DNA of 64,000 nucleotides from a virus (IMGVR_UViG_3300009430_000001:32598-96597); one strand, 5' to 3'. Positions 2,137-44,129 are shown, counted from the first letter of the stretch. Translations and numbers: made by a program. Notes: generated by a model from the letters alone, not told the origin.

Positions 2137-2817
2137 ATGAGTCGAGAGTATCACATCCGCGGCGGCGTGAAGGTGCTGAAGCTGCCGCCGCTGGAGCGCG
2201 TGCAGGAGCTGCTCTACGAGGACCCGGAGCAGCCTGGGGTGCTGCGGTGGCGGGTGAGCAGAGGCTGCCAGCCCGCCGGCTCCGTGGCGGGCGGCCTTAA
2301 TGGTGGTGGCCGTCGGCGGATCATGATTGATGGCGTTCTTTGTTACGCCTCGCGGTTGTTGTGGCTATTGCGCACGGGCGAGGATCCAGGGGCTGGGGTC
2401 ATTGATCATGAGGATCGTGCGAGAGATAATGATCGCTTTGAAAATCTGAGGCTTGCGCCGAATGGCCAGAGCTCTAATACCGCGCACAGTGGCAGGCAGA
2501 GCAATAATACAAGTGGCTATACGGGTGTGAGCTGGGACGATCGTTGTGGCAAGTGGCGCGTGAAACTTCAATACGAAAACAGGCGCATTCACTTGGGCTT
2601 TTTTCGCAACGTCAAAGATGCTTACGCTGTTTATCTTTGCGCAAAGTCAAAGTTTCACGGTGAAGAGTGGCTCGGCGAGCTTGCGCCTGGCTGGACACTC
2701 GAGCAAGCAAAGCAGCGCGTTATTGAAATGAAAAATGCTCGGTCCTGGGAGCTCCGGGATGAGATCTACAAGGCCGAGCGGCAGTTTGTCAAATGGTATA
2801 ACCGGCTAAAACTCTAG
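2137..2817 (+). CDS. HNH homing endonuclease with C-terminal AP2 DNA-binding domain
   Basis: IDHEDRARDNDRFENLRL (HNH_3-type) followed by NNTSGYTGVSW..KWRV..IHLGFF (AP2); inverted relative to neighbours. Confidence 0.85.
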   Translation: MSREYHIRGGVKVLKLPPLERVQELLYEDPEQPGVLRWRVSRGCQPAGSVAGGLNGGGRRRIMIDGVLCYASRLLWLLRTGEDPGAGVIDHEDRARDNDRFENLRLAPNGQSSNTAHSGRQSNNTSGYTGVSWDDRCGKWRVKLQYENRRIHLGFFRNVKDAYAVYLCAKSKFHGEEWLGELAPGWTLEQAKQRVIEMKNARSWELRDEIYKAERQFVKWYNRLKL

Positions 2818-2834
2818 ACTTAGACACAATGCGG
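2814..2834 (+). repeat. asymmetric motif (G)ACTTAGACACAAYGCGG, copy 1 of 7
   Basis: Other copies at 4302, 8583, 15903, 23253 (inverted), 25330 and 44102 (variant). Confidence 0.85.
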
Positions 2835-2838
2835 GGCT

Positions 2839-3213
2839 CTACTTCCCTCTTTCCATTCTGTCCAGCAGTCCTTTGATTCCCGCTTGGTGTTCCCGAAAAC
2901 CTTCAGCTGCATTGTCATCTGCGAGTTCAGTCGTGAAGTCTGCAATCGCTGCCAACATGCAATGCATGCATGCGCATGTCAGGCGCGAAGCTCTGGCGAT
3001 TTCGTCATTGAACACCGGGCCGTCGAGGTATGCAGCAATGTTGGCAAACAGATTGCGCGCAGCTGGTGTGGTGAACGGCGGCATCTTGTCGTCACAATCT
3101 TGCTGGGTTGCAATTTGTGTGCCAAGAAGTATAAGGAAAGACCGCACGAAGTCCATATCATGCGCCAGGCTTGAGTGCCGCAGGTGCTCAGCAATCTGCT
3201 TTTGGTATGTCAT
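2839..3213 (-). CDS. hypothetical protein
   Basis: ATG 3213 (MTYQKQIAEHLRH), 28 nt from the hairpin at 3241. Confidence 0.6.
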   Translation of the reverse strand: MTYQKQIAEHLRHSSLAHDMDFVRSFLILLGTQIATQQDCDDKMPPFTTPAARNLFANIAAYLDGPVFNDEIARASRLTCACMHCMLAAIADFTTELADDNAAEGFREHQAGIKGLLDRMERGK

Positions 3214-3283
3214 GGGGGTGAGTTGGGTGAAGAAAGAAAAGCGCCCCGAAGGGCGCTGGTATTGGGGAGCTTCTATTATCGCG

Positions 3284-4204
3284 TCAGAAGCCGGCGTCGT
3301 CAAGCACGGTGTCCGCGGTGGCATCCACGGTGGACAGCTGTTGTCCGGTGGTGTCGTAGTAAGCTTGCTCGCCTGCCACGGCAGCGGAACCAGCCGGCAT
3401 CAGGCCATAGCCCTGGAACGCACGCTTGATGCGCTTGACTGTTTCCAGCAGCTCTTCGATCGTGCTGGGTCCGTTGTACCAGCTGTTGTCGGAGAGCTTC
3501 ATCCAGCTTTTGCGATCAGGAGTGGGCACGGAGATCTCGAGGAATCGGGCGCGCTTGCCATTCCGCAGATCGATCCTGCACACGTCAAACAGCTGGCGGC
3601 TGTCGTCTTCCGACTGGCAGATCTCCGCCAGCGCGCCAAGGAAGCTGCGCACCGGGCCGGTGACGCCTGTGCTGCCATCGGGGCGATAGCTGACGGCATT
3701 GAAGTTCAGTTCGATGGCACGACCCTCGGTGTCGCTCATCAGGAAGCGCAGCCGATAGTTGAGCGCATAGGATGCATTCTCATCGGCGGGAGTCACCAGA
3801 AGAAGCATGTCCCGGGCAAATCCGATGATCTTGGATGTTCCGCTGTCTTCGTTGGTGGTTCCACCATCATCGGATACCGTGAAATTCACGGGCTTGTTTG
3901 CAGTCGCAGGTGTGACGGGCTGGAAAGGATTCTTGTACGCGCGGATCGGGGTGTGACCGACGACAGCTGCATCGTCCGGCGGCAGCTGGATCACCGCGGC
4001 TTCGGTCGGGGCCAGGGCGGAGGTCTCCTCGACTTGCTCGGCGACTTGCTCGGTGGCTTGCTCGACAGCTTGCTCAGCGACTTCGGGGATGCTCACGATC
4101 TCAGTTTGAACAGTGGTTTCAGTGGACGGCTCGAGCACTTCAGGGCTGAGTTTGGCGGGCTCGCGGGTACGGGTGGCGCGGGTACGGGTGGAATTCGTAG
4201 CCAT
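3284..4204 (-). CDS. hypothetical protein with acidic low-complexity N-terminus
   Basis: ATG 4204 (MATNSTRTR); EQAVEQATEQVAEQ repeats; 306 aa. Confidence 0.7.
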   Translation of the reverse strand: MATNSTRTRATRTREPAKLSPEVLEPSTETTVQTEIVSIPEVAEQAVEQATEQVAEQVEETSALAPTEAAVIQLPPDDAAVVGHTPIRAYKNPFQPVTPATANKPVNFTVSDDGGTTNEDSGTSKIIGFARDMLLLVTPADENASYALNYRLRFLMSDTEGRAIELNFNAVSYRPDGSTGVTGPVRSFLGALAEICQSEDDSRQLFDVCRIDLRNGKRARFLEISVPTPDRKSWMKLSDNSWYNGPSTIEELLETVKRIKRAFQGYGLMPAGSAAVAGEQAYYDTTGQQLSTVDATADTVLDDAGF

Positions 4205-4256
4205 TGGAAACAGATGAAGCAGATGAACGCGCTGCCTGTCACGCAGCACAAAGAAA

Positions 4257-4281
4257 AAAGGCCCCCGTGGAGGGAGCCTTT
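4257..4281 (-). repeat. hairpin repeat (plus strand AAAGGCCCCCGTGGAGGG), terminator-like copy
   Basis: Stem-loop followed by a U-tract on the minus strand; member of the ~19-copy family. Confidence 0.8.
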
Positions 4282-4301
4282 GAGTGGGAGGGAAAATCAA
4301 A

Positions 4302-4318
4302 ACTTAGACACAACGCGG
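4302..4318 (+). repeat. asymmetric motif copy 2
   Basis: ACTTAGACACAACGCGG, intergenic. Confidence 0.85.
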
Positions 4319-4328
4319 AGCGCAGGTC

Positions 4329-4946
4329 TCAGTCTTTGAATCTGTAGTGGTATGGCTTGTAGTGACTGGGATACATCGCATTGATGGGCCCGAGACGTGC
4401 ATTCTGTGCCTCAAGCTGCTCGAGGTCACGGCATGCACGTTCCATGGCGCTGTCACTGTCGAGCTTGGCGAGTAGTGGCAAGCAGGGAATGTAGTGCGTT
4501 GCGCCTTGGAATTTCTTGTTGCCATGGCAAATGATCGTGATGCCGCTGGTCAGCGTGTGATAAGCGCCGGTGCGCATGATCAAGCCGCTAGGCATATGGA
4601 TCATGAACAGCGGTTTGCAGATGCGCGTATTGTGGCTGGCATCATCGGGAAAACCTTCAGGCTCAGGAAGCCGTGGGTCGTCATGTGCCACGAGCTCGAT
4701 GCGATAGTCGCGTTGAGCATTGAACTCATCGAGTGGATCGTAGAGATCGCCGCCCCAGCCGACAGCGATCTTGGTCATGTCGTTAGTGTCAAGCTGTTGC
4801 TTGAGGTCTTGCCGGCGATCTAGTTCGATCGCAATGCGACCGAGGAAGTCGCGGTGGTTGTTGGGGAGTCGGGGTTCGATGTAGCTGTTGAGCATGAACT
4901 GCTTGGTTTTCTTGTCGGTGATACGTGATCCACGGACGTTGTTCAC
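4329..4946 (-). CDS. hypothetical protein
   Basis: GTG 4946 overlaps the TGA of the upstream gene (GTGA coupling). Confidence 0.6.
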   Translation of the reverse strand: MNNVRGSRITDKKTKQFMLNSYIEPRLPNNHRDFLGRIAIELDRRQDLKQQLDTNDMTKIAVGWGGDLYDPLDEFNAQRDYRIELVAHDDPRLPEPEGFPDDASHNTRICKPLFMIHMPSGLIMRTGAYHTLTSGITIICHGNKKFQGATHYIPCLPLLAKLDSDSAMERACRDLEQLEAQNARLGPINAMYPSHYKPYHYRFKD

Positions 4947-5491
4947 GTTTCCTCCTGCTTCTTGCGGTCTTCGCTCTCTTGGTGCTTCCATGTGCCCCAC
5001 TTCTCGATGTACTCTGTGGCGGTTGGCACGCGCTTCAGCTTGTGCACTTTGCGCCACTGCTCTTCAGTGGTGTCATGGAACTTGGCAGGGCCGCTGATTT
5101 CGTAAAGCTCGAGATCGAGGGTATCTATGCCTGCTTGAATCATCTGCGTCCACGTATTTGTGGGAGTCCAGGCTTGATCGTCTTCGCTCAGGTTGCGTTG
5201 CTGTATCTTGAGCTCTTCGACGTAACCCGTGCGAAGCACGGCCAAGGCCGCTCGCATAATGACGTGAATAACTAGCGCTGGCTGATGTCTGCTGATGCAC
5301 TCACGATAGGTGAAGTTTGTATAATTAAGTTTGTTCTCACAGCGTCTGATTATCGTGATCAGCTCTTTCACTGTGATGATGTCGTGGCGCCAGGCCACGT
5401 GCAGCAGTGCGTTGGCAACGTCTTGGTGAAGCTCAAGCAAATTGTTGTGGGCTTTGCCGTTTTTTTCAATCAGTCGGTTGTAGATGCTCAT
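4943..5491 (-). CDS. hypothetical protein
   Basis: 182 aa ATG ORF in the minus-strand operon. Confidence 0.65.
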   Translation of the reverse strand: MSIYNRLIEKNGKAHNNLLELHQDVANALLHVAWRHDIITVKELITIIRRCENKLNYTNFTYRECISRHQPALVIHVIMRAALAVLRTGYVEELKIQQRNLSEDDQAWTPTNTWTQMIQAGIDTLDLELYEISGPAKFHDTTEEQWRKVHKLKRVPTATEYIEKWGTWKHQESEDRKKQEET

Positions 5492-5520
5492 GTTGCCTCT
5501 TGTGGTTGAAGTGAATCCAG

Positions 5521-5835
5521 TTATTGATTGGCAGGTTCTTGGAGGATGTCAAACAGGCTGGCCCAGCCTTCAACAGAACCGCCATGGTTATTAATTACCT
5601 CTTTGGCCCTGGAGTTGAGTGGATCTATTTGCTGAACCATGAGGAAGTTGATTCCAGTTTGAGCGATTGCTATTTGACGGGCGTATTCGCTTTTACTGCG
5701 TGACTTGCGCATGGCAAGACTTGTAACTGTTGCTAGTGTGCAATCGACAAGATAGACGAATGCATGCTCGGTCGTGGTAAATTTTTTGGTGCGAAAGATG
5801 TTTTGATCTTTCTCGGATTTGGTGGCTTTTTTCAT
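5521..5835 (-). CDS. hypothetical protein (AT-rich)
   Basis: ATG 5835 (MKKATKSEK), ATGA-coupled to the upstream gene. Confidence 0.65.
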   Translation of the reverse strand: MKKATKSEKDQNIFRTKKFTTTEHAFVYLVDCTLATVTSLAMRKSRSKSEYARQIAIAQTGINFLMVQQIDPLNSRAKEVINNHGGSVEGWASLFDILQEPANQ

Positions 5836-6545
5836 GCTGCCTCCTGTAGTTGAATGAGTTTCTGGTCGAGTTGTCGTTTCCTGCTGCCGTGGGCGGGGAA
5901 CGCGATAATCACATGGGGTGGACGCTTCCAGCACAGGCGACAGCCGACACATTGCGGCGCACGTGGATCAGGTGCCAGCCTGGAGTGGGGGCACAGCACA
6001 GCGCGGTTGCCGCCGGCTGTGGTCCACGCCGTGCGCTTCTCGCCGGAAGGCACGATCAGGACGGCGTGCAAGCCGATCGCCACCGCGGCATCAGCCTGGG
6101 CCTCGAGCTCGAAGCTGAGGTTGATCGTGATCCGATGGCCCAGCAGCGCATCGAGGTGCGCCGGCTCATGTCGCCACTCCCGCCTGTGGGAGTACATGAA
6201 GGCGGGGCGCTTGCCCACGGCTGCGGACAGGGCGCCGAGGAAGCTGCGCACCTGGCCTGGCGTCTCCCCGGGGACGTCCCCTGCGACACCATATCGCAAT
6301 GGTGTTGTGGGCGGAAGACGAAAACGGACCCAGTCGATCATTTGGTCGAACTGCATCACGTCTTTGCCGATGCCGGCGCTGTAGTTGTCCCAGTGCCATG
6401 CCATGTAGCCCTGGTCGTGATAGCAGGTGCCATCATTCAATGGACAATCGCTGGGGCATGTGTTGCGGCTGGCGGTGATGGCAGCGATTGGGCCCAGCTT
6501 GTCGTTGTTGGTGGGGTACTTGCAGTGGAAGAAGTATTTGGTCAT
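5832..6545 (-). CDS. Cys-rich DUF7227/gp88-like protein (possible Fe-S or radical-SAM-related)
   Basis: N.KLGPI...TCPSDCP....CY, LRYGVAGD, CPH...CVGCRLC, IIAFPAHG motifs. Confidence 0.7.
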   Translation of the reverse strand: MTKYFFHCKYPTNNDKLGPIAAITASRNTCPSDCPLNDGTCYHDQGYMAWHWDNYSAGIGKDVMQFDQMIDWVRFRLPPTTPLRYGVAGDVPGETPGQVRSFLGALSAAVGKRPAFMYSHRREWRHEPAHLDALLGHRITINLSFELEAQADAAVAIGLHAVLIVPSGEKRTAWTTAGGNRAVLCPHSRLAPDPRAPQCVGCRLCWKRPPHVIIAFPAHGSRKRQLDQKLIQLQEAA

Positions 6546-6552
6546 GGTTTGA

Positions 6553-6786
6553 TCAGTATTCACCAGGAAACAGCACAATCTCGACTGGATAGCGGATCTC
6601 GCCTTTGTCATTGATCTCCACATCGTAGGGATCGCCAACGACGAATTCGCTTGGCTTGAGTCCAGCTCGAAAGAGCTTCTGCTCAACATCACGCATGATG
6701 CTGTGCCAGTCGGGTTCGGGATTCCAGTATTCCGGCGGCTCACTTGGTCGTGGGTCGCGGAACTGGCGGGGGTCGGTGGTAGCCAT
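6553..6786 (-). CDS. small hypothetical protein
   Basis: 77 aa ATG ORF in operon. Confidence 0.6.
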   Translation of the reverse strand: MATTDPRQFRDPRPSEPPEYWNPEPDWHSIMRDVEQKLFRAGLKPSEFVVGDPYDVEINDKGEIRYPVEIVLFPGEY

Positions 6787-6865
6787 GGAAGTGATGGAAA
6801 GTGGGTGGGGACTTATATGCCGTCAGAGCGCTTACAGTTGGCCAGCGACGGCAATGCCCCGGGGA

Positions 6866-7846
6866 TCAGGCCTTGATGCCGGCGAGTTCGCGGCAGAAGT
6901 CGCGAGCGACTTCGATGCGGCCCTTGTTGACTCCGAATAGCACGCGGCTGAACTTCTTGATGGCGTTCTGGCCGCTGGGGCTGGTCAGCACCTCAGTGAC
7001 GGCATTGAAGCCGTGCCAGGCGGTGCCGCGGACTCCAGGGATGTCGGTGCCGAGGCCGGTGGTCAGCGCTTCGACCATCGGGTTCCAGTCCCTCAGGTCC
7101 TCGAGCGTCTTGGCACGCACCGGCTTGCCGTCAGCCATGATCGGCCGGGCCAGCTCGGGGGCGTAGACGCGCTTGAGCATTTCGCGGAAGGCCTCGGTGT
7201 TCATCCTTGTTTCCGCGAACAGGTGGTAGTCCTGGACTTCGTCGTTGAAGGACTCCGTGGCGACATTGATGCTCTTGATCAGTCGCGTGATGTCGCTGTT
7301 GACACCTTTGCGGTGGGCCAGGCTGCGCTGGTTCTCGCTGCACATTGCAACTTGTAAAGTATTGCAACAAACCACACGCGTATCGGTGTAGAGAGTGCCG
7401 ACGCCAGTCTTGCCATCGTGGCCGAGGTAGCCGACGATGTAGCGCTCGATCTTGTCGTTGGCGAGTACGTTGTCTTCCAGGCCTTTGATCAGGCCAGTGA
7501 AGGCGACCTTGCGGCCTTCGTCGAGCACGACGAAAGTGTCGAGGATGATGTGGTCTTGAATGGCTTCAGCCATCTCGACCAGGCGCTCATTCTGCGCGAC
7601 CTCGTACTCATGCCCGGCAACGCCGAGCAGTTCGCCGGTGGTGCCGTGGATCAGGGCGCAGCGGTTGGCTTCGTGGGTCTGGTCGTCCCAGTTGTAGAAC
7701 AGGGGCTTCTTGATGACTTCGTAGTTGGCTTTGGCCATCTCGTAAGCCTGGCGGGGTGTGATGGTGATGTCATTGATGCAGAGCTCTTCGCCGTGCCAGG
7801 AGCGAATGCCGCGATTGGTGATTCCGGATTGGAAGTAGCTACCCAT
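6866..7846 (-). CDS. DUF932/DUF945 family phage/plasmid protein
   Basis: WHG...LGVAGHEYEVAQN...LDEGRKV...HDGK...RVVCCNTL...GTAWHGFNAVTE. Confidence 0.85.
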   Translation of the reverse strand: MGSYFQSGITNRGIRSWHGEELCINDITITPRQAYEMAKANYEVIKKPLFYNWDDQTHEANRCALIHGTTGELLGVAGHEYEVAQNERLVEMAEAIQDHIILDTFVVLDEGRKVAFTGLIKGLEDNVLANDKIERYIVGYLGHDGKTGVGTLYTDTRVVCCNTLQVAMCSENQRSLAHRKGVNSDITRLIKSINVATESFNDEVQDYHLFAETRMNTEAFREMLKRVYAPELARPIMADGKPVRAKTLEDLRDWNPMVEALTTGLGTDIPGVRGTAWHGFNAVTEVLTSPSGQNAIKKFSRVLFGVNKGRIEVARDFCRELAGIKA

Positions 7847-7903
7847 TTTCAGGAAGAATGCAGGTTTGGAAGGGGGTGGTGAATGCCCGTGTGGGCAATG
7901 AAG

Positions 7904-7929
7904 AAAGGCCCCCGCATGATGCGAGGGCT
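7904..7929 (-). repeat. hairpin repeat, extended-stem variant
   Basis: GGCCC-C-CGCA-TGA-TGCG-A-GGGCT; forms a U.G pair on the minus strand. Confidence 0.75.
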
Positions 7930-7960
7930 AGGAATCAGCGCAGCATCAGCTGCATGACAT

Positions 7961-8188
7961 TCAGAGCGACAGCGACTGTAAAGCCAATTTCGAGTAGGTC
8001 CCGGTAGCGTGCAGCTCTCTGATGATGTTCGCGGCGCGATTCAAGTCCACGTACTGTGTTGCCTCCCTTGGGTCGTTGACGTGCTGAATGCCGTTGGGCG
8101 GCAACGTCGATGAAGAAGGAAGGTGATTTGCCTTGAGGAAGGACGCGGAGTCTTGATCCAGAATGACGAAGCGGCATGAGCGGTGCAT
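7961..8188 (-). CDS. small hypothetical protein
   Basis: 75 aa ATG ORF; the alternative frame 7935..8177 looks less protein-like. Confidence 0.5.
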   Translation of the reverse strand: MHRSCRFVILDQDSASFLKANHLPSSSTLPPNGIQHVNDPREATQYVDLNRAANIIRELHATGTYSKLALQSLSL

Positions 8189-8220
8189 GGGGTGGATGGG
8201 ATGTCGGGTCGATTGTACGA

Positions 8221-8514
8221 TCAGGCAGACGCTACGGCAAGTCCATTGTAGTGGACTGAAACACTGTGTCCTGCGTCTGTAGTCGCAAGCACAGTTGATA
8301 GGTTGTTCTCGTTGGCGAGGTAGGAAGCGTGCATTTCCATGGCATGGAGCAGCTCAGCTTCGCTGGCGGCTTCGAATACGTAGCTCTCGAGTAGCAGGTT
8401 GTTGATCGGATCTTCGAAGCACACGTGAACCGTGGCCGGTCGCTTGACTGAGCGCACGGTGCTGTTGATCTTGCTGGCAGACGGAATGCGAAGTTCGCGA
8501 GACATGGGTCTCAT
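8221..8514 (-). CDS. hypothetical protein
   Basis: ATG 8514, 18 nt from the hairpin at 8532. Confidence 0.6.
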   Translation of the reverse strand: MRPMSRELRIPSASKINSTVRSVKRPATVHVCFEDPINNLLLESYVFEAASEAELLHAMEMHASYLANENNLSTVLATTDAGHSVSVHYNGLAVASA

Positions 8515-8531
8515 GGCGAAGGACGCAGAAC

Positions 8532-8600
8532 AAAGGCCCCCGTGGAGGGACCACGGGAGCCGGAGGGTTCTGTGTTTAGTCGGACTTAGACACAATGCGG
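8532..8600. repeat. hairpin repeat (8532-8552) plus asymmetric motif copy 3 (8583-8600)
   Basis: AAAGGCCCCCGTGGAGGGACC and GACTTAGACACAATGCGG. Confidence 0.85.
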
Positions 8601-8668
8601 AGCATCGGCCGGGGGATCAATCGTCGGGCGGCTCCAGGACCAAGTGGAAACGAAGCCGTGACGATCAA

Positions 8669-8965
8669 TCAGCGGGAGTGTAAACGTCGTCGTCGTTGTG
8701 CGCGGTCGAGTGCTTCGCTCGTTTCCAGGATTGGAGCTTCGCCGCGCTGGATCTTTTTTCCAGCTAGCACACGCTCGAGTTGATGGCGCGGGATGCGCTT
8801 CCAGTCGTTCTCGTGTTTGACATAGAAGTCAACGCGATCGATTCGCTTTGTTCCGCGGCTGTAACGAAAGATTGACGTCTTGATCTCAATGTTGTCGATG
8901 ATGGTCTTTTGAGATTCACGCTTATCAAGCGTAATGGCCTTGAGATCGTCGAGGGTGAGTGTCAT
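8669..8965 (-). CDS. basic hypothetical protein
   Basis: ATG 8965 (MTLTLDDLK), ATGA-coupled. Confidence 0.6.
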   Translation of the reverse strand: MTLTLDDLKAITLDKRESQKTIIDNIEIKTSIFRYSRGTKRIDRVDFYVKHENDWKRIPRHQLERVLAGKKIQRGEAPILETSEALDRAQRRRRLHSR

Positions 8966-9714
8966 GAGGCGGATTCGTCGTTGGTGTACTCCGATGTCCA
9001 ATACAGGAAGTCGTCACGCTTCTGCACGGGCATGATGATGAAGCGCAGAGACACGTCGCCCCAGGGCTTTTTGGTCTTGGACTTCATCTTTTCCCAGCTT
9101 TCTGAATTTATGCCGGAGCGGATCTCCATGGGCATGATGCTGGAGCTGAAGGCGAACTGTGGATGCTTGGCCTCCAGCTTGATGATGATCTCATTGATTA
9201 CCTTCATGTAGATCGGATCCCAGAGAATGGGCCGCAAAGCGTTCATCGAGTAGTGACAGGGGAAGATGTTATCGAATGCTTGTACGGTTGGGAATGCGTA
9301 AGTCGCTGGGATCGGCTCATGCGCCAGGCGCGCGTTCTCAAGGAAGATCGTACTGATCTTGCCTTCGTCGTTGAATGCGAGAACAGCGGCGTCATTGGAC
9401 ATCCACTTTTCGAAGACCTTGAAGTGGATCAGGAGCTCGGGGATCTCCTGGAAATCACCGGGAGTGTGATCACTGAGGCCTGCTCTCAGCGCAACATGGC
9501 CGTTGGTCGCTTCGATGTAGTAGCACTCGAGCGTGGCATCTGAGCGGATGCGCACGAATTCGAGTGCTTCTATGCCCAGGGGTTTGGCGAGCTTGGCGAT
9601 TTGTGAAGCGGCCCAAAGCAGGGCGGTGGGCAGGCGCAGCGTACCGCCGGCCGCGGAAGGAGTGTCAGGCACGGTGTGAATGACGGTGGAACCGTAGCTG
9701 ATGATGAGAATCAT
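8962..9714 (-). CDS. possible DNA polymerase III beta-clamp-like protein
   Basis: YIEATNGHVALR resembles the ATDGHRL motif of sliding-clamp domains. Confidence 0.4.
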   Translation of the reverse strand: MILIISYGSTVIHTVPDTPSAAGGTLRLPTALLWAASQIAKLAKPLGIEALEFVRIRSDATLECYYIEATNGHVALRAGLSDHTPGDFQEIPELLIHFKVFEKWMSNDAAVLAFNDEGKISTIFLENARLAHEPIPATYAFPTVQAFDNIFPCHYSMNALRPILWDPIYMKVINEIIIKLEAKHPQFAFSSSIMPMEIRSGINSESWEKMKSKTKKPWGDVSLRFIIMPVQKRDDFLYWTSEYTNDESAS

Positions 9715-9923
9715 GGGTTTTCAAAAGTAAATTGCTTGGCAATTCCCGATTCGCCACACTCTATGCACTCGATGTAGCTGTTTTCGTTGAAGTTTAGGTC
9801 TCCTCCACACACGTCAGAGCCATTGTCATACATCAGCACGAGTGTGCTGACTTCAATGCGAAATGGCTCTTCGTTGCCGCACTTGGGGCAGCGTATGCCG
9901 GCAAGACAGTTGGTGTTGGTCAT
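9711..9923 (-). CDS. small zinc-ribbon protein
   Basis: CPKC...CIEC. Confidence 0.65.
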   Translation of the reverse strand: MTNTNCLAGIRCPKCGNEEPFRIEVSTLVLMYDNGSDVCGGDLNFNENSYIECIECGESGIAKQFTFENP

Positions 9924-10126
9924 GAGTGGTCTTCAACGGATTTAAGGAATTCGATCGTTCGAATTTTGGGCCATGTGGCCAGTGCTGTGAGCCTGGCGGT
10001 TTCTTGGTTGTCTCCGGCTACCCATACGCGATCACGCATGGGGCAGCCGAAGACATCTTCGATCAGGACGTCGAAGACGTAGTAGGTGGTGGTTTCAGGT
10101 TTCACGGGCAAGACGCTGGTGGGCAT
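9920..10126 (-). CDS. small hypothetical protein
   Basis: 68 aa, coupled ORF. Confidence 0.55.
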   Translation of the reverse strand: MPTSVLPVKPETTTYYVFDVLIEDVFGCPMRDRVWVAGDNQETARLTALATWPKIRTIEFLKSVEDHS

Positions 10127-10526
10127 AAAGCCTGTAGAATGGTTGAACGGATCTCAGGCCTCCTGCTTCTGAAATACGTTTGATAAGGCCAGAACCTCCT
10201 TTGTGCTTTTGTACTTCATGGATAGATGGGATCTCAAGCGGATAGATGTTGCAGGACTTGAGAAAGTCGTAGATTTCTTCGTAGAATCCAGTGGGATCAA
10301 GGTCTTTGTTGGGGCCGTGTCTGCCGCTGAGGTATTCTGCGGTTGGCATGTAATGCTTGGGCAGTAAATCAGGATGATGGCAGATGAGATAGAGGATCAG
10401 GGCGCAGTCGAGCTCCATGGATGGGCTGCGACGGTCGCGCTGGGCGGCCTCTTCCAGAGCCGTAATGAGATCGGCTGGTGCGGTCCAGTTGACGCGCGGC
10501 CGATTCCCGCGGTCGCCGGTGCTCAT
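10095..10526 (-). CDS. ribbon-helix-helix (Arc/CopG-like) DNA-binding protein
   Basis: N-terminus RPRVNWTAPADLITALEEAAQRDRRSPSMELDCAL fits the RHH pattern. Confidence 0.6.
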   Translation of the reverse strand: MSTGDRGNRPRVNWTAPADLITALEEAAQRDRRSPSMELDCALILYLICHHPDLLPKHYMPTAEYLSGRHGPNKDLDPTGFYEEIYDFLKSCNIYPLEIPSIHEVQKHKGGSGLIKRISEAGGLRSVQPFYRLYAHQRLARET

Positions 10527-10723
10527 TGCTTCTCCTCCGGCATCCAGGGATCGGCATCGGCGCGGGCTTCAGCTTCGGAATCGAAGGGCCCGCTCATCTC
10601 GCCGTCAGGCAGGCAGCTGGGAAAGCAGGCTTGCCAGTACCAGTCAATGTCGGAAAAGAGCGTGAATGTTTCGTAGGAGCCGAAGCTTTCACCGCTTTCG
10701 TTATGGAATTGGTAGAAGGTCAT
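10523..10723 (-). CDS. small phage protein
   Basis: WYWQACFPSCLPDGEMSGPFDSEAEA; ATGA coupling. Confidence 0.65.
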   Translation of the reverse strand: MTFYQFHNESGESFGSYETFTLFSDIDWYWQACFPSCLPDGEMSGPFDSEAEARADADPWMPEEKQ

Positions 10724-10959
10724 CGTTGCGATTGCCTCCAGCGCTGGGTTTCGCCGGGATTCTCTTCGTAGAGATGCCGCCATTCGTCGGATCCACTGAC
10801 GAGGTGTTCGTCAAGCAGAATGCGAAGCGCGCAGTCGAACGCTTCACTGGCGCTCAGCTCACGGCCGTTGGGTCCCTTGATCGGGAATGTTCGGCAGTAC
10901 CGCAAGCGGCGTGCGGCGTTGTAGAGCGAAGCGGTGGGATTGGGGGTGGATAGGGTCAT
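10720..10959 (-). CDS. small hypothetical protein
   Basis: 79 aa, coupled at both ends. Confidence 0.6.
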   Translation of the reverse strand: MTLSTPNPTASLYNAARRLRYCRTFPIKGPNGRELSASEAFDCALRILLDEHLVSGSDEWRHLYEENPGETQRWRQSQR

Positions 10960-11363
10960 GGCAGATAGCTCTGATAGCGGTTGGCGTTCCCGACGGCGTG
11001 CTTGAGGGCTGAGGCGAATGCCTCGGCGATGGGCTGGGGTACGTTGAGCTCGAAGATGTCAACTTCGCCTTTGTCTTCGAATATGGGTTCGTGGTGCGGG
11101 CTCAGCGGTGCGCGCCAGAGTTTTTCGCCTTGCATCCAGTAAGCAAAGCCTGTTGGCTTGTGTACCAGATACGATTGCGGATCGCGGCCGGTGCAGTCTT
11201 CGTCAGGGCAGTGGTTTTGGAATTGATGAAGTTGCTTGAGGGTGAGCTCGGTGTAGACGCGGCTGCAGTGGGGGCAGTGAAAGTAGCTGCCCTTCTTGTC
11301 CATTAAGGCTATGAATCGGCTGCCAAGACGAATGTCGTTTGGCGTGATGGCGGGTTCGCTCAT
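10956..11363 (-). CDS. zinc-finger-containing hypothetical protein
   Basis: CPHC...HCPDEDC; ATG 11363 or 11369. Confidence 0.55.
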   Translation of the reverse strand: MSEPAITPNDIRLGSRFIALMDKKGSYFHCPHCSRVYTELTLKQLHQFQNHCPDEDCTGRDPQSYLVHKPTGFAYWMQGEKLWRAPLSPHHEPIFEDKGEVDIFELNVPQPIAEAFASALKHAVGNANRYQSYLP

Positions 11364-11415
11364 GACCATGCAGTGGAGATTTCGCCGTAAGGGGCGGGGT
11401 GGTAGGTGGGGATAC

Positions 11416-11610
11416 TCACGGATTTTCTTTGGCGAGGTGTGAGCGCAAGTCGACGACGGCCCAACCGGCTTCGATGAATTCATCTCGAATCCGGTCGGCC
11501 TCTATGGAGTGACAGAGACTGCTGATTCGCTCAGAGTCGCCTTTGAACTCCATGAGTAGCGTGCAGTAGCGGCCCGTCGCGGTGGGCGGAATGATGATGA
11601 CTGTGTTCAT
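11416..11610 (-). CDS. small hypothetical protein
   Basis: 64 aa ATG ORF. Confidence 0.5.
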   Translation of the reverse strand: MNTVIIIPPTATGRYCTLLMEFKGDSERISSLCHSIEADRIRDEFIEAGWAVVDLRSHLAKENP

Positions 11611-11613
11611 GGC

Positions 11614-12054
11614 TTAGGTAGCAATGGATTCAGATCGGTTCGTTGCAGAGGCCCGAGTGGTCTTCGTAGATCGGCTCTTCGTTGTCTGCCGTCGGGTTGC
11701 CGGCCTCTTCGTCGCGCTCGGCGTCGATTTCGGCCCATTCGATCCAGATGTACGCCTGGATGTACGCGGTGCCTTCGGTGCGCTGGATTTCTGGGTTGTC
11801 CGGGACGCTGATGCAGCGTCCTTCGAGGGCTCGAGCTCGATTGATGAGCTCCTGGTCGCTGATGTCGCTGCGGATCTGGTTGGCCATTGGCGGGCGAGGC
11901 GGTCAGAGAGTCGATGAATGAAGCAGCCAAATGCGTATCTGGCTGCGATGGTGAAGGCGATGGCATGAGCCAGGCCGCGGGCCAGGGCCTCGAGCCGATG
12001 CTCGAGATCCCAGGTGCGGTAGGCTCGCCACGCCTCGAGGGGCGTGAGTTGCAT
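11614..12054 (-). CDS. hypothetical protein (C-terminal part overlaps 11630..11887)
   Basis: ATG 12054 (MQLTPLEAW) lies just after the upstream stop. Confidence 0.4.
   Translation of the reverse strand: MQLTPLEAWRAYRTWDLEHRLEALARGLAHAIAFTIAARYAFGCFIHRLSDRLARQWPTRSAATSATRSSSIELEPSKDAASASRTTQKSSAPKAPRTSRRTSGSNGPKSTPSATKRPATRRQTTKSRSTKTTRASATNRSESIAT
11630..11887 (-). CDS. small acidic phage protein
   Basis: GTAYIQAYIWIEW motif, acidic tail. Confidence 0.6.
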   Translation of the reverse strand: MANQIRSDISDQELINRARALEGRCISVPDNPEIQRTEGTAYIQAYIWIEWAEIDAERDEEAGNPTADNEEPIYEDHSGLCNEPI

Positions 12055-12059
12055 GGCGA

Positions 12060-12518
12060 TCAGATGAGGTTGAGCAGGGTGAACCAGGAGTCCGGGGCGT
12101 CCGGTTCTACGGAATCGCCGTCGGGATTTTCGATGACGGAATCGAGCGACCATTGGTCGAACTCAGCTGATGCTGGGATCGGCATCCATTGGCCTTTCCA
12201 GTACATGCCGAAGATGCGACCTGCTTCGGTTTTGAAGCAGGCCACATCGCCACTGGTGTGCAGTGGCCTGTTGGTTTCTGGATCACGAAGCCGGGGCTTG
12301 CCGGCTACGATGCGGCTGAGGCGAACAATCGGCTTCCCGGTGTTCGGGTTCCGTCGTCCGGTGGGGCGAATCGTGGGCTCGGGCTGGAATTGCTCGGCGT
12401 CGCCGTAAAGGTTGCGGTACTCGAGCATGAGTCTCTCGCCGATGGTGGGCGTGCGCTTGTCAAGAAGTTGCTGGATTTCTTTTGTCATTTCGTTGCTAGC
12501 TGTTTCTTTTGTGTTCAT
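12060..12518 (-). CDS. hypothetical protein
   Basis: 152 aa; C-terminal ENPDGDSVEPDAPDSW. Confidence 0.65.
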   Translation of the reverse strand: MNTKETASNEMTKEIQQLLDKRTPTIGERLMLEYRNLYGDAEQFQPEPTIRPTGRRNPNTGKPIVRLSRIVAGKPRLRDPETNRPLHTSGDVACFKTEAGRIFGMYWKGQWMPIPASAEFDQWSLDSVIENPDGDSVEPDAPDSWFTLLNLI

Positions 12519-12748
12519 TGGTCGTCTTTGAACAGCATATGAGCAGGAGGCTCTGGCTTTGTGCGCCAGAGCTTGCTGTGAGTGGCTTGATCGATCAAGC
12601 CAATCCTGTAGTGGCGGAGGATCCAGTTATCCCACAGCTCGCGAAGCTCGATTGTGGGCTTGAGACCGCGTTGCAAGAGAAACTCGAGATATTCCAGGAA
12701 GAATTTCTCGACTTCTTCAGCGGTCATCGGGGTGGAGTGAAGGTTCAA
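12515..12748 (-). CDS. small hypothetical protein
   Basis: Coupled ORF. Confidence 0.55.
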   Translation of the reverse strand: MNLHSTPMTAEEVEKFFLEYLEFLLQRGLKPTIELRELWDNWILRHYRIGLIDQATHSKLWRTKPEPPAHMLFKDDQ

Positions 12749-12999
12749 GGGTTTTGTCGCTCCAGTCGGATGGGTGATTCGGAGGAGAAGACGCAGCAGA
12801 TGACAGCGCCACAGCCGTTCTCGTCGTTCATGCGTTCCTCGATCTCTTTGGCGGTGTGGCCGTTCTCTTCGAGTAGGTGCCGAAGCATGCTTGTTGTTGC
12901 TTCGTCTTCGGTGCAGGAACCGAACACATGGCCGGTGTCTTCGTCGTCGAACAACACACGGCCCGTGACGGCCCAGTAGCGGATGGGCTTGTCAAACAT
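12745..12999 (-). CDS. small hypothetical protein
   Basis: ATG 12999 (MFDKPIRYWAVTGR), TAATG coupling. Confidence 0.6.
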   Translation of the reverse strand: MFDKPIRYWAVTGRVLFDDEDTGHVFGSCTEDEATTSMLRHLLEENGHTAKEIEERMNDENGCGAVICCVFSSESPIRLERQNP

Positions 13000-13208
13000 T
13001 AGGATTCGGGATAGAAGAAGCTGATGTCGCTGCCTTGCTGCACAAGCAGCTCTTTGCATTCATCATCGGAGATGGCGTTTGTTTCCGAGGTGTAGGCGCC
13101 GGAGTAATCTCCTTCGACTGCTTCTCGCCAGATTCCAGCTGGGGTCATGTCATCGGGGATGGGATCCTGGCTCAGGATTTCCATCGTGATCGTGGTGAGG
13201 TAGGGCAT
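12999..13208 (-). CDS. small acidic hypothetical protein
   Basis: ATG 13208 (MPYLTTITMEILS). Confidence 0.55.
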   Translation of the reverse strand: MPYLTTITMEILSQDPIPDDMTPAGIWREAVEGDYSGAYTSETNAISDDECKELLVQQGSDISFFYPES

Positions 13209-13563
13209 GGCTTTCTTGTGTAAGCTTGGAGTGGAGGAGCTTGGCTCGCTGGCTGGCCCAGCGCGGGCAGCGCAGGAGATCGACGTAGTCCTGGAGCGTG
13301 GGCACCATGCCCAGGTCCTCCAGGACGTGTTGCTCGGCGAGCAGGGAGGTCGGTACGCGCCGGCCTCGGGAGTTGGTGATCGTGTCACCAAACAGGGCAA
13401 CCGCATCGGCGATGCCCTGGGTGTGATGGGCCAACATGCGATGCATGAGGCGATCAGTGCCAGCGCGGCCGCGGTCCATCCAGCGATGCAGCGCCATGTA
13501 GTCATCGGGGTCACCCCCGAATGCATTGGCGCTGCTGATGGCGTGGTAGCTGTAATGGCTCAT
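13150..13563 (-). CDS. DUF6915 family protein
   Basis: HAISSANAFGG..DDY.ALHRWMD...HRMLAHH..GI...FG.TITNS.GR.VP...AEQHVLEDLG.VPT.QDY. Confidence 0.85.
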   Translation of the reverse strand: MSHYSYHAISSANAFGGDPDDYMALHRWMDRGRAGTDRLMHRMLAHHTQGIADAVALFGDTITNSRGRRVPTSLLAEQHVLEDLGMVPTLQDYVDLLRCPRWASQRAKLLHSKLTQESHALPHHDHDGNPEPGSHPR

Positions 13564-14120
13564 AGTGTTATGGTCGAGTAGTCTTGGGTGATGACGTTGT
13601 TGTTGTGGTTGATCTCGATGCTGACGCCATGTTCGATGCCGTCCTCGAGCTCTTCCTCGGTGGCTTGGCGAATGATGATTTCACCGAATCCACCTTCATT
13701 GATCTCGAAGCCCGGGTGGTAGCCGTAGGCCACATCCCAGGCGATGGCGTCAAGCGCCTCGCTGATGCTGCTGGGATCGGGAGCGACCACGGGTTTCCAG
13801 CACATGGCTTTGCTGTCGTATTGCTGTCCCACGGTTCGCTGATAATTAAATTCAGCGGGCATGTCTTCATCGAGGAGCTGGTTGAGTTCTTTTAAGATTT
13901 CGGTGTTGCACTCGGCGGGTTCGACGGTGATGTCGGAAATATCGCCGGAATCGCCTGAGCCCTCGTACGTGATCGTGATCTTGTGGACACGTTCGTCCTT
14001 GGAGCGCAGGTAGAGAAAGATGCCCTTGAGAAGGAGGCATCCCTTCTGCGCTTGATCCTTGAGTTGTTTTTGGTACTCGATGATTTCGGCGAGAACTTCG
14101 TTGATGTTGATGGGGTTCAT
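13560..14120 (-). CDS. DUF6878 family protein
   Basis: YEGSGDSGDI...GFEINEGGFGEI; usual neighbour of DUF6915. Confidence 0.8.
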   Translation of the reverse strand: MNPININEVLAEIIEYQKQLKDQAQKGCLLLKGIFLYLRSKDERVHKITITYEGSGDSGDISDITVEPAECNTEILKELNQLLDEDMPAEFNYQRTVGQQYDSKAMCWKPVVAPDPSSISEALDAIAWDVAYGYHPGFEINEGGFGEIIIRQATEEELEDGIEHGVSIEINHNNNVITQDYSTITL

Positions 14121-14137
14121 GGGATTGGTGCGGGTGG

Positions 14138-14836: not shown

Positions 14837-14839
14837 GGT

Positions 14840-15232
14840 TTATAGGTCAATGATTTTACCTTCAAGGGTAATGCGTTGCAGTTTGTTGCACTGCAGTCGA
14901 CCAACAAGGTTTTGTTCACTGTCAAACCTAAGGCGGCACAGTTGCTCGACGGCATTTTCGCCGGTTATGAGCTGTAGCCGCCAAAGCAAGCAGCGTTGTT
15001 GGCTGGTTATGAGCGTCCAGCGGGGATACTCTTGCCCTTTGGACAGCTCATTCCAGTATGCCATTGCGGATTCAAGCGAGTCTTGCTCGACTCGCCTGAC
15101 TTCGCGGAATAGCTCTTTGGCGGCAGGTTCCCATTTGTAGCGATCGAAGGTAGGCCGCTGTTGGCTTAGCGGCACTAGCTCAACAGTGGAGCCGGCCTCG
15201 GTGGGGGTGGAAGCGGTGGAGATGATGGTCAC
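14840..15232 (-). CDS. hypothetical protein
   Basis: GTG 15232, 29 nt from the hairpin at 15261. Confidence 0.5.
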   Translation of the reverse strand: MTIISTASTPTEAGSTVELVPLSQQRPTFDRYKWEPAAKELFREVRRVEQDSLESAMAYWNELSKGQEYPRWTLITSQQRCLLWRLQLITGENAVEQLCRLRFDSEQNLVGRLQCNKLQRITLEGKIIDL

Positions 15233-15303
15233 GGGTGTCCATGAGAGGGGACACAGAACGAAGGCCCCCGTGGAGGGGGCCATGGAGCGGAGGGGCTTGC
15301 TGG

Positions 15304-15831: not shown

Positions 15832-15902
15832 TGGTTGGTGAGTGAAGGACATGAAAACGAGGACCCCGCCTGATGGCGAGGGCTCGTGGTGGGCATAAGC
15901 CC

Positions 15903-15920
15903 GACTTAGACACAATGCGG
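15903..15920 (+). repeat. asymmetric motif copy 4
   Basis: GACTTAGACACAATGCGG. Confidence 0.85.
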
Positions 15921-23252: not shown

Positions 23253-23273
23253 CCGCATTGTGTCTAAGTCTAG
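23253..23273 (-). repeat. asymmetric motif copy 5 (inverted)
   Basis: Reverse complement is CTAGACTTAGACACAATGCGG, identical to 2814..2834. Confidence 0.85.
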
Positions 23274-25329: not shown

Positions 25330-25346
25330 ACTTAGACACAACGCGG
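25330..25346 (+). repeat. asymmetric motif copy 6
   Basis: ACTTAGACACAACGCGG, 4 nt before ATG 25351. Confidence 0.85.
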
Positions 25347-37491: not shown

Positions 37492-37520
37492 CGATACCCT
37501 GAACGCAAGATAGGAGCGCC

Positions 37521-42161: not shown

Positions 42162-42443
42162 GTGGTCGAGCGCTTTGCCGCCAGTCCTGAGGTCTACAGC
42201 GCTGTGCGGCGTCACCTGCAAAGTGACGGTGTTCCGCGTGAGGCCGCCAACCATCTCACATCCGAGATGGTCACGCACGGTGAAGACGTCGATTCATCGA
42301 TCGATCGCTTCCAGGAGCTGCATGCGCGCCTGCGGTCACAGGGCTTCGATGACGAGGCGGCGCAGGCTCTGGCCGTTGAGTCGATGGAGGGCCGCCAGCC
42401 CGAGCCGCGCGCCACGCTTCGCTACCAGATGACGGAGGCCTGA
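42162..42443 (+). CDS. small helical late protein
   Basis: GTG 28 nt after TACCCTG (42134); coupled to the lysozyme gene. Confidence 0.65.
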   Translation: MVERFAASPEVYSAVRRHLQSDGVPREAANHLTSEMVTHGEDVDSSIDRFQELHARLRSQGFDDEAAQALAVESMEGRQPEPRATLRYQMTEA

Positions 42444-43246
42444 TGGCGGACTTACTCGCGCGTTACCGGCAGCTCCTGCAGAACCCGAACGTTCGCCGGA
42501 CGCTGGACACGATCAGCTACGCGGAGGGCACCTCGGGCCCCGAGGGCTACCGCACGATGTTCGGTGGCGGCAAGTTCGACACTTCCGGCGGCTGGCGGCA
42601 CCCGGATCGAGTGGTGCACGGCGGCGGTTACAGCAGCGCCGCAGCCGGCAAGTATCAGTTCATGCCCGACACCTGGACCGGTGTCTCGCAACGTCTGGGC
42701 CTGAAGGACTTCAGCCCCGAAAGCCAGGATCTCGGCGCGCTGGCCAAGATCGAGGAGCGCGGCGTCAACCTCGAGGAGATCGCCAAGGGCGGCCTGAAGG
42801 CGGGCCACATCCACAAGCTGGCGCCGGAGTGGGCGTCATTGCCGACCGCCCAGGGCAAGAGCTACTACGGCCAGCCAGTGAAGGGGCTCGGTGAGCTCCA
42901 GAAGGTCTACGGCGGCCAGATCGGCGCCGGTGGTGGAGGCGGCAGCACTGCGAGCTCCGGTGGCGGCACGAGCAGCGGCAGCAGCAGCGGCACGAGCAGC
43001 AGCAGTAGCGGCGCGAGCGGTGGTGACGGCATCATCCAGCCGGAGCCGATCACGCCGCCCAAGCCGATCACGCCGGCCGCCATCCAGACGCCTGGTGCGA
43101 CGCTGATCAAGCCCGCCGCTTCGTTCGGCGTCGGGCCCAATGCCTGGGAGGGCGCGGGCGGCCAGGACGCCACGCCGTCGGGCAATCGCCTTGCCGGCTC
43201 GCGCTCGATCGTGCGCCAGCTGATGCAGATGCTCATGGGCGCCTGA
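42443..43246 (+). CDS. lambda-R-type (GH104) lysozyme/lytic transglycosylase with Ser/Gly linker and tail
   Basis: ISYAEGT..GY..MFGG..SAAAGKYQF..TW..DFSPESQD..EWASLP..YGQP. Confidence 0.9.
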   Translation: MADLLARYRQLLQNPNVRRTLDTISYAEGTSGPEGYRTMFGGGKFDTSGGWRHPDRVVHGGGYSSAAAGKYQFMPDTWTGVSQRLGLKDFSPESQDLGALAKIEERGVNLEEIAKGGLKAGHIHKLAPEWASLPTAQGKSYYGQPVKGLGELQKVYGGQIGAGGGGGSTASSGGGTSSGSSSGTSSSSSGASGGDGIIQPEPITPPKPITPAAIQTPGATLIKPAASFGVGPNAWEGAGGQDATPSGNRLAGSRSIVRQLMQMLMGA

Positions 43247-44078
43247 GTGGGATCGCCGGCGGCTCGAGCACCCGGGCCGTCCGTTCGCTGGCGATCAGCG
43301 GCGGCTCCTCCAGCCAGGCATCCGGATCTAGCTGGGGCACCACATGGCTCCGGCGCATCCGGCGCTCCTCCACCGGCGGCGGACCGGGCGGCGCGGTCCA
43401 GCCCGGGTCTTCATCGGTGATCCTCACCATCTCTTCGGTGTGGAACTGATCCCGCAAGCAGCGGGCCTGCGCCATCCACGTGTGGCTGATGGCGCGGATC
43501 AGCTTCGCCACGTCCTTTGGGCTGTAGCGGATCATTGGCCGTTCCTGGGCGCTGGGGCTGTGGCCGATGCGGCCGGTTGCTCCAGTGAGCGTGTAGATCC
43601 AGTCATGCACCAGCTGCGCGGATTCCCACGAGTAGCGATGCAGGTGCAGATGGCCGATCAATCCTCGTGATCGCTTCGACGGGAAGATGCGGCCGCGATC
43701 GGCCCACAGCGCACCGATGCCTTCAGCGCCGATCAATTCCAGCGCGCTGCTCGTGATTTGAAAGTTGCCCTCGGGGTACAGCAGCTTGTAGGCCGTCTCG
43801 AACCACTTGCTGCCCACGCGGATCCGCCAGTTCCCGGCTCCGGGCCTGGATTCTGGGTTGTAGCTGCCGACGAAGCTGGGCTCTGGCGCCTTCGGCATGA
43901 ACTGCTTCAGGCGCTTCCACTGGTAGAGCGCGTACTCCTCGTGCTCGAACGGGTGGTGGATGATCAGGCTGTAGGAGTTCCCGGGCCGGCCGAGCAGCCC
44001 ACGACCCAGGCAGTAGCCGATCACCAGGCGCGTCAGGGCCGCGGATTCTTCCCAGCTGAGCCTGGCAGGTGCGGGCAT
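43233..44078 (-). CDS. degenerate two-motif LAGLIDADG endonuclease-fold protein
   Basis: IGYCLGRG and ALWADRG align with the LLGDG and W.MDDG motifs of LAGLIDADG_2; also H...EY..Y, LYP.G...IT..L. Confidence 0.75.
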   Translation of the reverse strand: MPAPARLSWEESAALTRLVIGYCLGRGLLGRPGNSYSLIIHHPFEHEEYALYQWKRLKQFMPKAPEPSFVGSYNPESRPGAGNWRIRVGSKWFETAYKLLYPEGNFQITSSALELIGAEGIGALWADRGRIFPSKRSRGLIGHLHLHRYSWESAQLVHDWIYTLTGATGRIGHSPSAQERPMIRYSPKDVAKLIRAISHTWMAQARCLRDQFHTEEMVRITDEDPGWTAPPGPPPVEERRMRRSHVVPQLDPDAWLEEPPLIASERTARVLEPPAIPLRRP

Positions 44079-44101
44079 GGCTTGATGATGCTTTTTCCAA
44101 T

Positions 44102-44129
44102 CTTAGACACAATGGGGGTTCATACTCTG
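44102..44129 (+). promoter_or_regulatory. asymmetric motif copy 7 (variant) plus TACTCTG late box for the capsid operon
   Basis: CTTAGACACAATGGGG 44102-44117; TACTCTG 44123-44129. Confidence 0.65.

Follow-up and report, generated by a model that had tools for sequence, protein, structure and literature searches.

The 96,597-base genome considered here, of an uncultured, cyanophage-like virus, was assembled as circular, and we analyzed bases 32598-96597 of it (IMGVR_UViG_3300009430_000001), a stretch of 64,000 bases hereafter called the window; coordinates are window positions unless marked as genome. From about 2839 to 23025 the genes run mostly leftward, with rightward islands at 17298-18434 and 19508-20119, and from 24235 on they run rightward, into the structural module. 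Our subject is an asymmetric 17-base word, (a/t)CTTAGACACAAYGSGG, that recurs at seven gene boundaries of this region, one of which is the spacer between the capsid gene and a divergent gene for a LAGLIDADG-like protein. The Synechococcus phage S-EIVl is a relative, with a portal protein of 49% identity. Gene positions come from a home-made caller, supplemented with four genes placed by eye and corrected by eye where long antisense open reading frames (ORFs) misled the caller.

Seven copies of a 17-base word

The genome holds seven copies of the word, labelled A to G (Table 1), and all of them lie within the window. The pattern CTTAGACACAAYGCGG, searched with up to two mismatches, is matched at 2819, 4303, 8585, 15905, 25331 and 44102 on the plus strand (the last with one mismatch) and at 23253 on the minus strand. 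In 100 dinucleotide-preserving shuffles the mean was 0.08 matches, and none of the 100 reached seven. Allowing three mismatches over the whole genome added no further copy. Counted against the 17-mer with a leading A, four copies have no mismatch, two have one and one has two, after which nothing is found at three or four mismatches and two matches appear at five. The core CTTAGACACAA is invariant, and an alignment of the seven flanks revealed no conservation past about 17 bases. A 16-mer falls wholly between genes at 9.3% of positions in our gene map, which gives P ~6e-8 for the intergenic placement of all seven copies. A preliminary description of this DNA had reported seven near-invariant, asymmetric copies at gene boundaries, and both parts of that statement hold: the whole-genome count returns the same seven, with none in a coding region.

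The copies span 41 kb of the 96 kb genome. Six of the seven lie on the plus strand, a split that is not significant (two-sided P ~0.12, by our own arithmetic). With respect to the flanking genes, E, F and G point with transcription and A-D against it, and this division (3 vs 4) is non-significant by itself. A-D all stand at the 3' ends of leftward gene blocks and face into them. Longer repeats link some of the copies: A and E form a perfect inverted pair of 21 bases (2814-2834 and 23253-23273), E and F form an inverted pair of 19 bases (95%) that faces outward from a central region of 2 kb, and F and G have an additional upstream TTTTCCA in common.

Three copies had also been described as lying near hairpins, and this is the case for B, C and D. 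Read in the sense of the minus-strand messenger RNA (mRNA), each presents a stop codon, the word, 21, 23 or 23 bases respectively, a G+C hairpin and a run of Ts; by rough arithmetic, the chance of three spacings that close is ~0.01. At site A, the HNH-AP2 gene has apparently been inserted between the word and its former hairpin near 2075-2110. A hairpin family of the form GGCCCCCTCCACGGGGGCC plus Ts, found on the minus strand from 4257 to 24046, precedes many leftward genes, often with a CCCTCC tract on its 5' side and a pyrimidine-rich tract such as GTCCCTC on its 3' side.

Table 1. Copies of the 17-base word and the features that adjoin them (window positions).
Feature	Position	Strand	Remarks
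Site A	2818..2834	+	Exact 17-mer; begins right after the HNH-AP2 stop codon (gene end 2817); 4 bases from the stop of the minus-strand gene 2839-3213
Site B	4302..4318	+	C at the Y position; minus-strand order is stop of gene 4329-4946, 10 bases, word, 21 bases, hairpin, Ts
Site C	8584..8600	+	Exact 17-mer; hairpin 23 bases away; at the 3' end of a long series of minus-strand genes, from 15831 down to 8669
Site D	15904..15920	+	Exact 17-mer; 23 bases from hairpin; partial inverted copy of the core ~20 bases to the right
Site E	23253..23269	-	Sole minus-strand copy; directed towards the region of small leftward genes, with the first hairpin (23086-23101) ~150 bases ahead
Site F	25330..25346	+	C at the Y position; takes up most of the 29 bases that separate genes 25091-25321 and 25351-25605
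Site G	44101..44117	+	T before the word, G at the S position; between the LAGLIDADG-like and capsid genes
-10-like word TACTCTGA	44123..44130	+	7/8 match to the TACCCTGA class; 12 bases before ATG 44143
LAGLIDADG-fold gene (281 amino acids)	43233..44078	-	Arg at both catalytic positions; candidate binder
Terminator-like hairpin of site B	4257..4281	-	G+C stem, then Ts
Terminator-like hairpin of site C	8535..8561	-	G+C stem, then Ts
Terminator-like hairpin of site D	15864..15881	-	G+C stem, then Ts
HNH-AP2 homing-endonuclease-like gene	2137..2817	+	Adjoins site A

Two simple explanations were tried and rejected. The ATG within the word is ruled out as a start codon because B and F read ACG there. 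Sites of inversion or recombination are rejected as well: the word has no dyad, the one resolvase domain encoded is truncated, and copies in direct orientation would lead to deletions. A scan for the exact word elsewhere gave three single matches in viral contigs and at least 113 single matches in metagenome contigs. Among the contigs listed, only L035 is related by blastn or tblastx, and it is the same phage (99.9%); widening the scan pattern with S probably added chance matches. No dispersed family of the word was found in the low-GC relatives S-EIVl, G001 and G003. Only with gaps can the word be likened to T7-group promoters or Ter sites, and this resemblance was not counted as evidence.

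A LAGLIDADG fold without its catalytic acids

The protein encoded beside site G is predicted to adopt a monomeric, two-domain LAGLIDADG fold (predicted local distance difference test score, pLDDT, 84.5). Its best fold match is I-SceI (E-value 1e-7, template modelling score 0.66 on the target), followed by I-WcaI, WhiA and I-DmoI, with the bI3 maturase further down; the WhiA/DUF199 structures among the matches are PDB 8dy9, 3hyi and 3hyj. Pfam LAGLIDADG_2 gives a weak match (E 2.5e-4), below the cut-off, and 43 homologues are found at E<=1e-3. No HTH_WhiA or other helix-turn-helix (HTH) Pfam match occurs in the protein, and its C-terminal 60 residues are predicted to be disordered.

We aligned the catalytic sites of 24 family members with that of a canonical relative, L134, which has Asp at both positions. 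At the first position the family has Arg in 18 members and Lys in six, and at the second it has Arg in all 24. Because Arg or Lys replaces both metal-binding acids throughout, cleavage is not expected, and the earlier characterization of the protein as nuclease-dead is supported for this predicted fold. LAGLIDADG genes stand at the same pre-capsid place, again divergent, in the more distant relatives L289, L295 and L321, and by tblastn also in L266, L279, L304 and L306. The first three keep Asp or Glu at the catalytic positions, and intact genes at the same locus suggest a long-resident endonuclease that was disarmed in one subclade.

Group I introns reach the Rfam gathering score in only 2 of 15 relatives' loci, and two are present in this phage, although divergent introns may be missed by this threshold. 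With so few introns at hand, a splicing role like that of LAGLIDADG intron maturases does not by itself explain why the gene is retained. As for other candidate binders, a weak Pfam screen of 45 small early and central proteins produced no convincing DNA binder, and the 10095-10526 protein, a candidate of the preliminary description, gave no match other than RHH_5 (E 0.18).

Members of the dead-LAGLIDADG family are also found in the protein clusters of P0035 and P0047, filed under Cyanobium sp. metagenome-assembled genomes, and one lies on a 4.7 Mb contig. These records may point to the host group, or to copies in prophages or hosts; we infer that the host is probably a Cyanobium or Synechococcus-type picocyanobacterium.

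A related word in the capsid spacer of other phages

Single-protein scans with the portal and with a 1380-residue protein of the phage found no relatives, and portal-profile scans found only relatives of 46-51% identity. A profile scan with the LAGLIDADG protein returned 24 viral loci, of which two are this phage and the other 22 are non-identical, all with the dead form. Having been found through the LAGLIDADG protein itself, these 22 are a biased sample. They are closer to the phage than the portal-found relatives, with 55-61% identity in the portal and 70-84% in the capsid and with a G+C content of 57-68%. In most of them (parts of L223-L227 were not covered) the gene lies between the M23 peptidase and capsid genes and diverges from the latter, and within the same biased sample the dead form is syntenic, not sporadic or mobile as for a homing endonuclease.

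The spacer between the two divergent genes measures 75-90 bases and contains three conserved blocks: GTGCTT, a near-palindrome that reads TACCCT or TACCTT according to the strand, and GCCTGTGTAAG. The last block, in the form CCTGTGTAAG, stands directly before the LAGLIDADG gene, with at most one mismatch in 18 of the 22 loci and in diverged versions in the other four; this word, related to the 17-mer, is the most conserved part of the spacer. On the capsid strand the relatives read CTTACACAGGC (CTTACAcaggc), 11 bases and TACCTT. The phage under study reads CTTAGAcacaatggggg, ttca and TACTCT, with site G, CTTAGACACAATGGGG, 5 bases before TACTCT. Site G is thus the local counterpart of the relatives' conserved word. 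That word lies at about -33 to -20 relative to the capsid start, where the copy at G covers about -33 to -18, and it coincides with the transcript start of the divergent gene. The copy between the LAGLIDADG-like and capsid genes had been singled out before; it lies 23 bases from the start codon of the former and 5 bases before the -10-like TACTCTGA.

The complete relative G006 (90,162 bases) has one copy of the word and no near copies; it also has its own variant of the hairpin, in seven copies. Among relatives without the LAGLIDADG gene, word-like matches (<=2 mismatches) occur before the capsid gene in 10 of 51 loci. Four of these ten were read (L302, L316, L296 and L283) and were rejected, the match lying inside the coding sequence of the upstream gene.

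A separate promoter-like word

The phage encodes an RpoD-like protein of the sigma-70 family. A uniform 8-base word, TACCCTGA/G, is found in the sense direction, on both strands, 9-24 (mostly 18-22) bases before many start codons; examples are at 24218-24225, 25624-25631, 37495-37502 and 47865-47872. TACCCTG is present in 12 upstream windows against 0.55 expected. G006 encodes a homologue of the sigma protein, 42% identical over 279 residues, and its genome contains ATACCCT 26 times, by eye mostly between a stop and the next start. In S-EIVl, G001 and G003 only generic TAnAAT-type words precede genes, and the sigma gene, looked for in G001, G003 and three other low-GC records but not in S-EIVl, was absent from all five. 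We regard the TACCCTGA class as probable -10-only promoters read by the RpoD-like sigma that the phage encodes. No conserved -35 element was found at the clade's promoters, whether of the form ccATACCCTc or TACCCTGA.

Other features of the window and genome

The interval 23199-23720 includes ~430 non-coding bases between site E and a gene for an 87-residue protein, with two 44-base direct repeats ~72 bases apart; a TGnTATACT-like word at 23199-23207 (+) points into it. No Rfam match at E<=1 was found over 22900-25700, and the interval could be a replication origin or a non-coding RNA. Downstream of site G, ATG 44143 opens a reading frame with the capsid residues WIDSD. In intronless relatives the capsid protein reads ...LWIDSDFPKLLGAELYRP...; in this phage WIDSD ends at 44297, in frame from ATG 44143, and FPKILGAELYRP resumes at 44525, so that a first capsid intron seems to occupy ~44298-44524, and exon 1 may have up to 51 codons.

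Both genes of the rightward islands, 17298-18434 and 19508-20119 (+), have protein-like translations, and the minus-strand ORFs that overlap them look like antisense junk; TACCCTGG lies 22 bases 5' of the ATG of the gene at 19508-20119 (+). A long plus-strand ORF between sites A and B (2873-4339) was ruled out by its composition compared with that of the minus-strand protein. At 16945-17322 of the genome, an ORF of 125 codons encodes only the N-terminal catalytic domain of an XisF-like serine recombinase, adjoining AbrB-like and sigma genes. Contigs from two other metagenome runs (X2 and X3) join 13561 straight to 14819. The segment that they lack, 13562-14818, takes in a DUF6878 gene together with the larger part of the HNH endonuclease gene (14138-14836).

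A candidate protein docking site

Judged from sequence comparison, the 17-mer is, with somewhat better than even probability, a docking site for a protein. The clade's promoters have no conserved -35, so the conserved word of 11-17 bases upstream of the capsid -10 is something extra; its presence there, together with the adjoining conserved but disarmed fold of a long-site reader, is most simply understood as an operator of which the neighbouring protein is the likeliest reader. We put forward the dead LAGLIDADG protein as the binder tentatively, at clearly less than even confidence. The full proposal, in which a monomer reads the docking site, the LAGLIDADG protein is the best candidate, and an operator at the capsid gene is joined by six extra copies, falls only a little short of an even chance in our estimation.

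According to this proposal, a monomeric, sequence-specific protein would read a long asymmetric site of 17 bases. Site G would be an operator for the capsid gene, for the LAGLIDADG gene itself or for both, in an arrangement common to the 22 relatives, and the six further copies would have been added in the lineage of this phage. E and F flank the central 2 kb, a putative control region, one on each side and facing outward. A-D close the leftward blocks at their 3' ends, and three of them (B, C and D) have a terminator-like hairpin ~21-23 bases away. Lacking a full -10-like word, the six copies would be barriers or extra operators and not promoters. The fixed spacing raises the idea, which is not a result, that a polymerase moving in the direction of the word might stall at the bound protein with the hairpin just transcribed. 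A broader reading is rather doubtful: that a disarmed homing endonuclease beside the capsid gene was kept across the high-GC subclade as a DNA-binding regulator still able to read its site at the capsid promoter, and that in this phage the site was copied six times into a seven-site regulon marking the borders of the early blocks. If so, the LAGLIDADG saddle itself, and not an added helix-turn-helix, would be the reading head of a viral transcription factor.

What the sequences show is the copies and where they lie, the predicted fold, the loss of its catalytic residues and the shared order of gene and word; binding, the identity of the binder and an effect on transcription are inferred from these. 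Several points weigh against the proposals. The co-occurrence of gene and word is confounded with descent and may reflect a single event in one high-GC subclade, and the word in the relatives could owe its conservation simply to coinciding with the transcription start of one promoter and with the -35 position of its partner. Because G006 has one copy, the six extra copies are without comparative support. The word has two extra middle bases compared with the relatives' version, and a rigid LAGLIDADG saddle may not tolerate these without co-evolution. Orientation is mixed, and the same protein that would serve the capsid gene from G would obstruct the late operon from F, so that no one simple role fits all sites. 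Nor does microdiversity help: contigs of four DNA runs, compared over 5401-25400, vary at ~37 places, of which one falls on the outer base of E and none within C, D or F, but only ~0.1 would be expected in 64 bases, and the comparison has no power.

Alternative explanations

The preliminary description had offered a phage-specific promoter and a replication signal beside a protein operator. The 17-mer is probably not a promoter, and we regard as improbable a scheme in which initiation occurs near its G-rich 3' end, E, F and G launch three main units, and A-D send antisense RNAs into the early blocks from their 3' ends, for a late shut-off of early genes. Such a scheme would suit the compact invariant block (an A+T-rich part, then GCGG, then a purine), the direction of E, F and G towards downstream genes, the position of A-D at 3' block ends facing inward, the phage's own sigma-70-family protein and the TTTTCCA common to F and G. 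However, no single-subunit RNA polymerase of the kind that serves T7-type promoters was found: the ORFs gave no match to PF00940, a six-frame PF00940 search gave none either but is weak, as the control genomes gave none, and the polymerase motif set is absent from all ORFs of at least 250 residues. The 1380-residue protein was tried as a virion RNA polymerase and rejected, with no family match and no motif set. With its enrichment before starts, TACCCTGA is the better partner for an RpoD-like sigma, and the sigma-bearing G006 shares the TACCCT class, whereas the low-GC relatives, with their generic words, include those in which the sigma gene is absent. Within the 17-mer no TAnnnT hexamer outlasts the T/C variation at position 12. 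A full -10-like word follows only one of the seven copies, G; A has a partial TACTTC, and none follows F, which ends 4 bases 5' of an ATG. Only three of the copies face the genes that they would serve. The other four are antisense, and the transcript from E would be in sense to those same genes. A nicking, priming or fork-control site at the DNA level, served by a nuclease such as the adjacent HNH-AP2 protein, is decidedly improbable. The nick sites of T5, phiKMV-like phages and tf are short invariant words at few places and on one strand only (PMC3517423). The word resembles them in form and in having six of seven copies on one strand, yet one copy here is on the other, and the bias, as noted, is not significant. 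Two of the three homing-endonuclease-like genes adjoin a copy, at P ~0.05. The phage has a primase-helicase (Pfam on ORFs) and no recognisable DNA polymerase, no polymerase family being matched among the submitted ORFs; S-EIVl has a family A polymerase. G exceeds C on the plus strand almost genome-wide, regardless of gene direction and with a maximum at ~16 kb to 70 kb (genome), as in one-way replication, but this skew stays positive across D, E and F and does not change at E or D, though a fork trap between them would need a change. Moreover, a PF05472 search with a positive E. coli control found no Tus homologue, which a Tus-Ter barrier would require, the copies cover less than half of the genome, and the conserved place of the word in relatives is left unexplained. 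The replication option thus fares no better than the promoter.

An RNA-level element has a slim probability. Leftward mRNAs would carry the reverse complement of the word (A-D) before their 3' hairpins, like small RNAs derived from 3' untranslated regions, and this would pair with the forward word in leader or inter-cistronic RNA at F, possibly at G, and at E, setting the timing of translation or decay. The complementarity is perfect over 16 bases, B, C and D present a seed, ~20 bases, a hairpin and Us, F lies just before its AUG in an unstructured leader, and the G of B pairs with the C of F at the variable position. Set against this, the likely -10 at G is downstream of the word, so that capsid mRNA from that promoter would be without it; folding predictions leave the word at B, C and D partly or fully base-paired with the sequence around it and not free; E belongs clearly to neither class; and the single copy of the relatives has no partner. 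We know of no precedent for such an element. The probability is slimmer still that the copies are functionless repeats, an ancestral homing site or boundary sequence spread by recombination and kept alike by recent gene conversion. The multi-copy state is private to this phage, F and G have flanking letters in common, and homing-endonuclease genes are mobile, as the absence of 13562-14818 with its HNH gene from two other runs illustrates; but the copies are strictly intergenic, even in a gap of 29 bases, their flanks are otherwise unrelated, the distance to the hairpin is fixed at three sites, and six direct repeats would promote deletions, which selection should remove. Of the preliminary reading, three parts find support in comparison: the word behaves as a protein site would, unlike coding sequence or chance; the LAGLIDADG-like protein is predicted to have the monomeric fold and lacks both catalytic acids; and in 22 relatives its gene retains a related word just before its start.

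Comparison with known systems

The likeness to stoperators suggested at the outset is a fair working analogy that fails in orientation, copy number and type of repressor. Cluster A mycobacteriophages of the L5 gp71 type have 20-30 operators or stoperators, mostly facing with transcription, and these are asymmetric, near-invariant sites without dyad in short intergenic gaps, few of them in promoters (PMC6550527). The present sites share that form, but there are seven, three with and four against transcription. Cluster A phages are temperate, with an integrase or parABS and an immunity repressor that, once bound, blocks elongating polymerase; here we found only the resolvase-domain ORF and no complete integrase or L5-type repressor match, which is weak evidence.

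For the candidate binder, I-SceI is the best structural match among the monomeric LAGLIDADG homing endonucleases, readers of long non-palindromic sites. The I-SceI site is 18 bp long. Unlike I-SceI, the family studied here has lost both metal-binding acids in every member. That a homing endonuclease can repress its own gene is known from I-TevI, according to a review (PMC3384342), and the arrangement at site G, where binding is predicted, would be similar: a homing-endonuclease-type protein with a DNA site at its own promoter. I-TevI is an active GIY-YIG enzyme with one operator, whereas the protein here has a LAGLIDADG fold without catalytic acids, its candidate site also falls within the capsid promoter, and the word recurs at six other places. 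In the same review, WhiA/DUF199 proteins have a LAGLIDADG fold without catalytic acids, the T. maritima protein also having Arg at one catalytic position, and WhiA serves transcription (PMC3384342). The phage protein resembles them in that loss and differs in having no WhiA or HTH family match and a tail predicted to be disordered.

For the annotation of the little-known but widespread lineage of S-EIVl relatives, the analysis distinguishes three classes of signal: the 17-mer, terminator-like hairpins and a sigma-linked, -10-only word. Should the dead LAGLIDADG protein bind the 17-mer, it would be a selfish nuclease turned viral gene regulator, and sequenced relatives would display its ancestral (active-type gene), intermediate (dead, one site) and expanded (seven sites) states. 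Natural, non-cutting binders of asymmetric sites of 16-20 bp would then also be on offer in this family.

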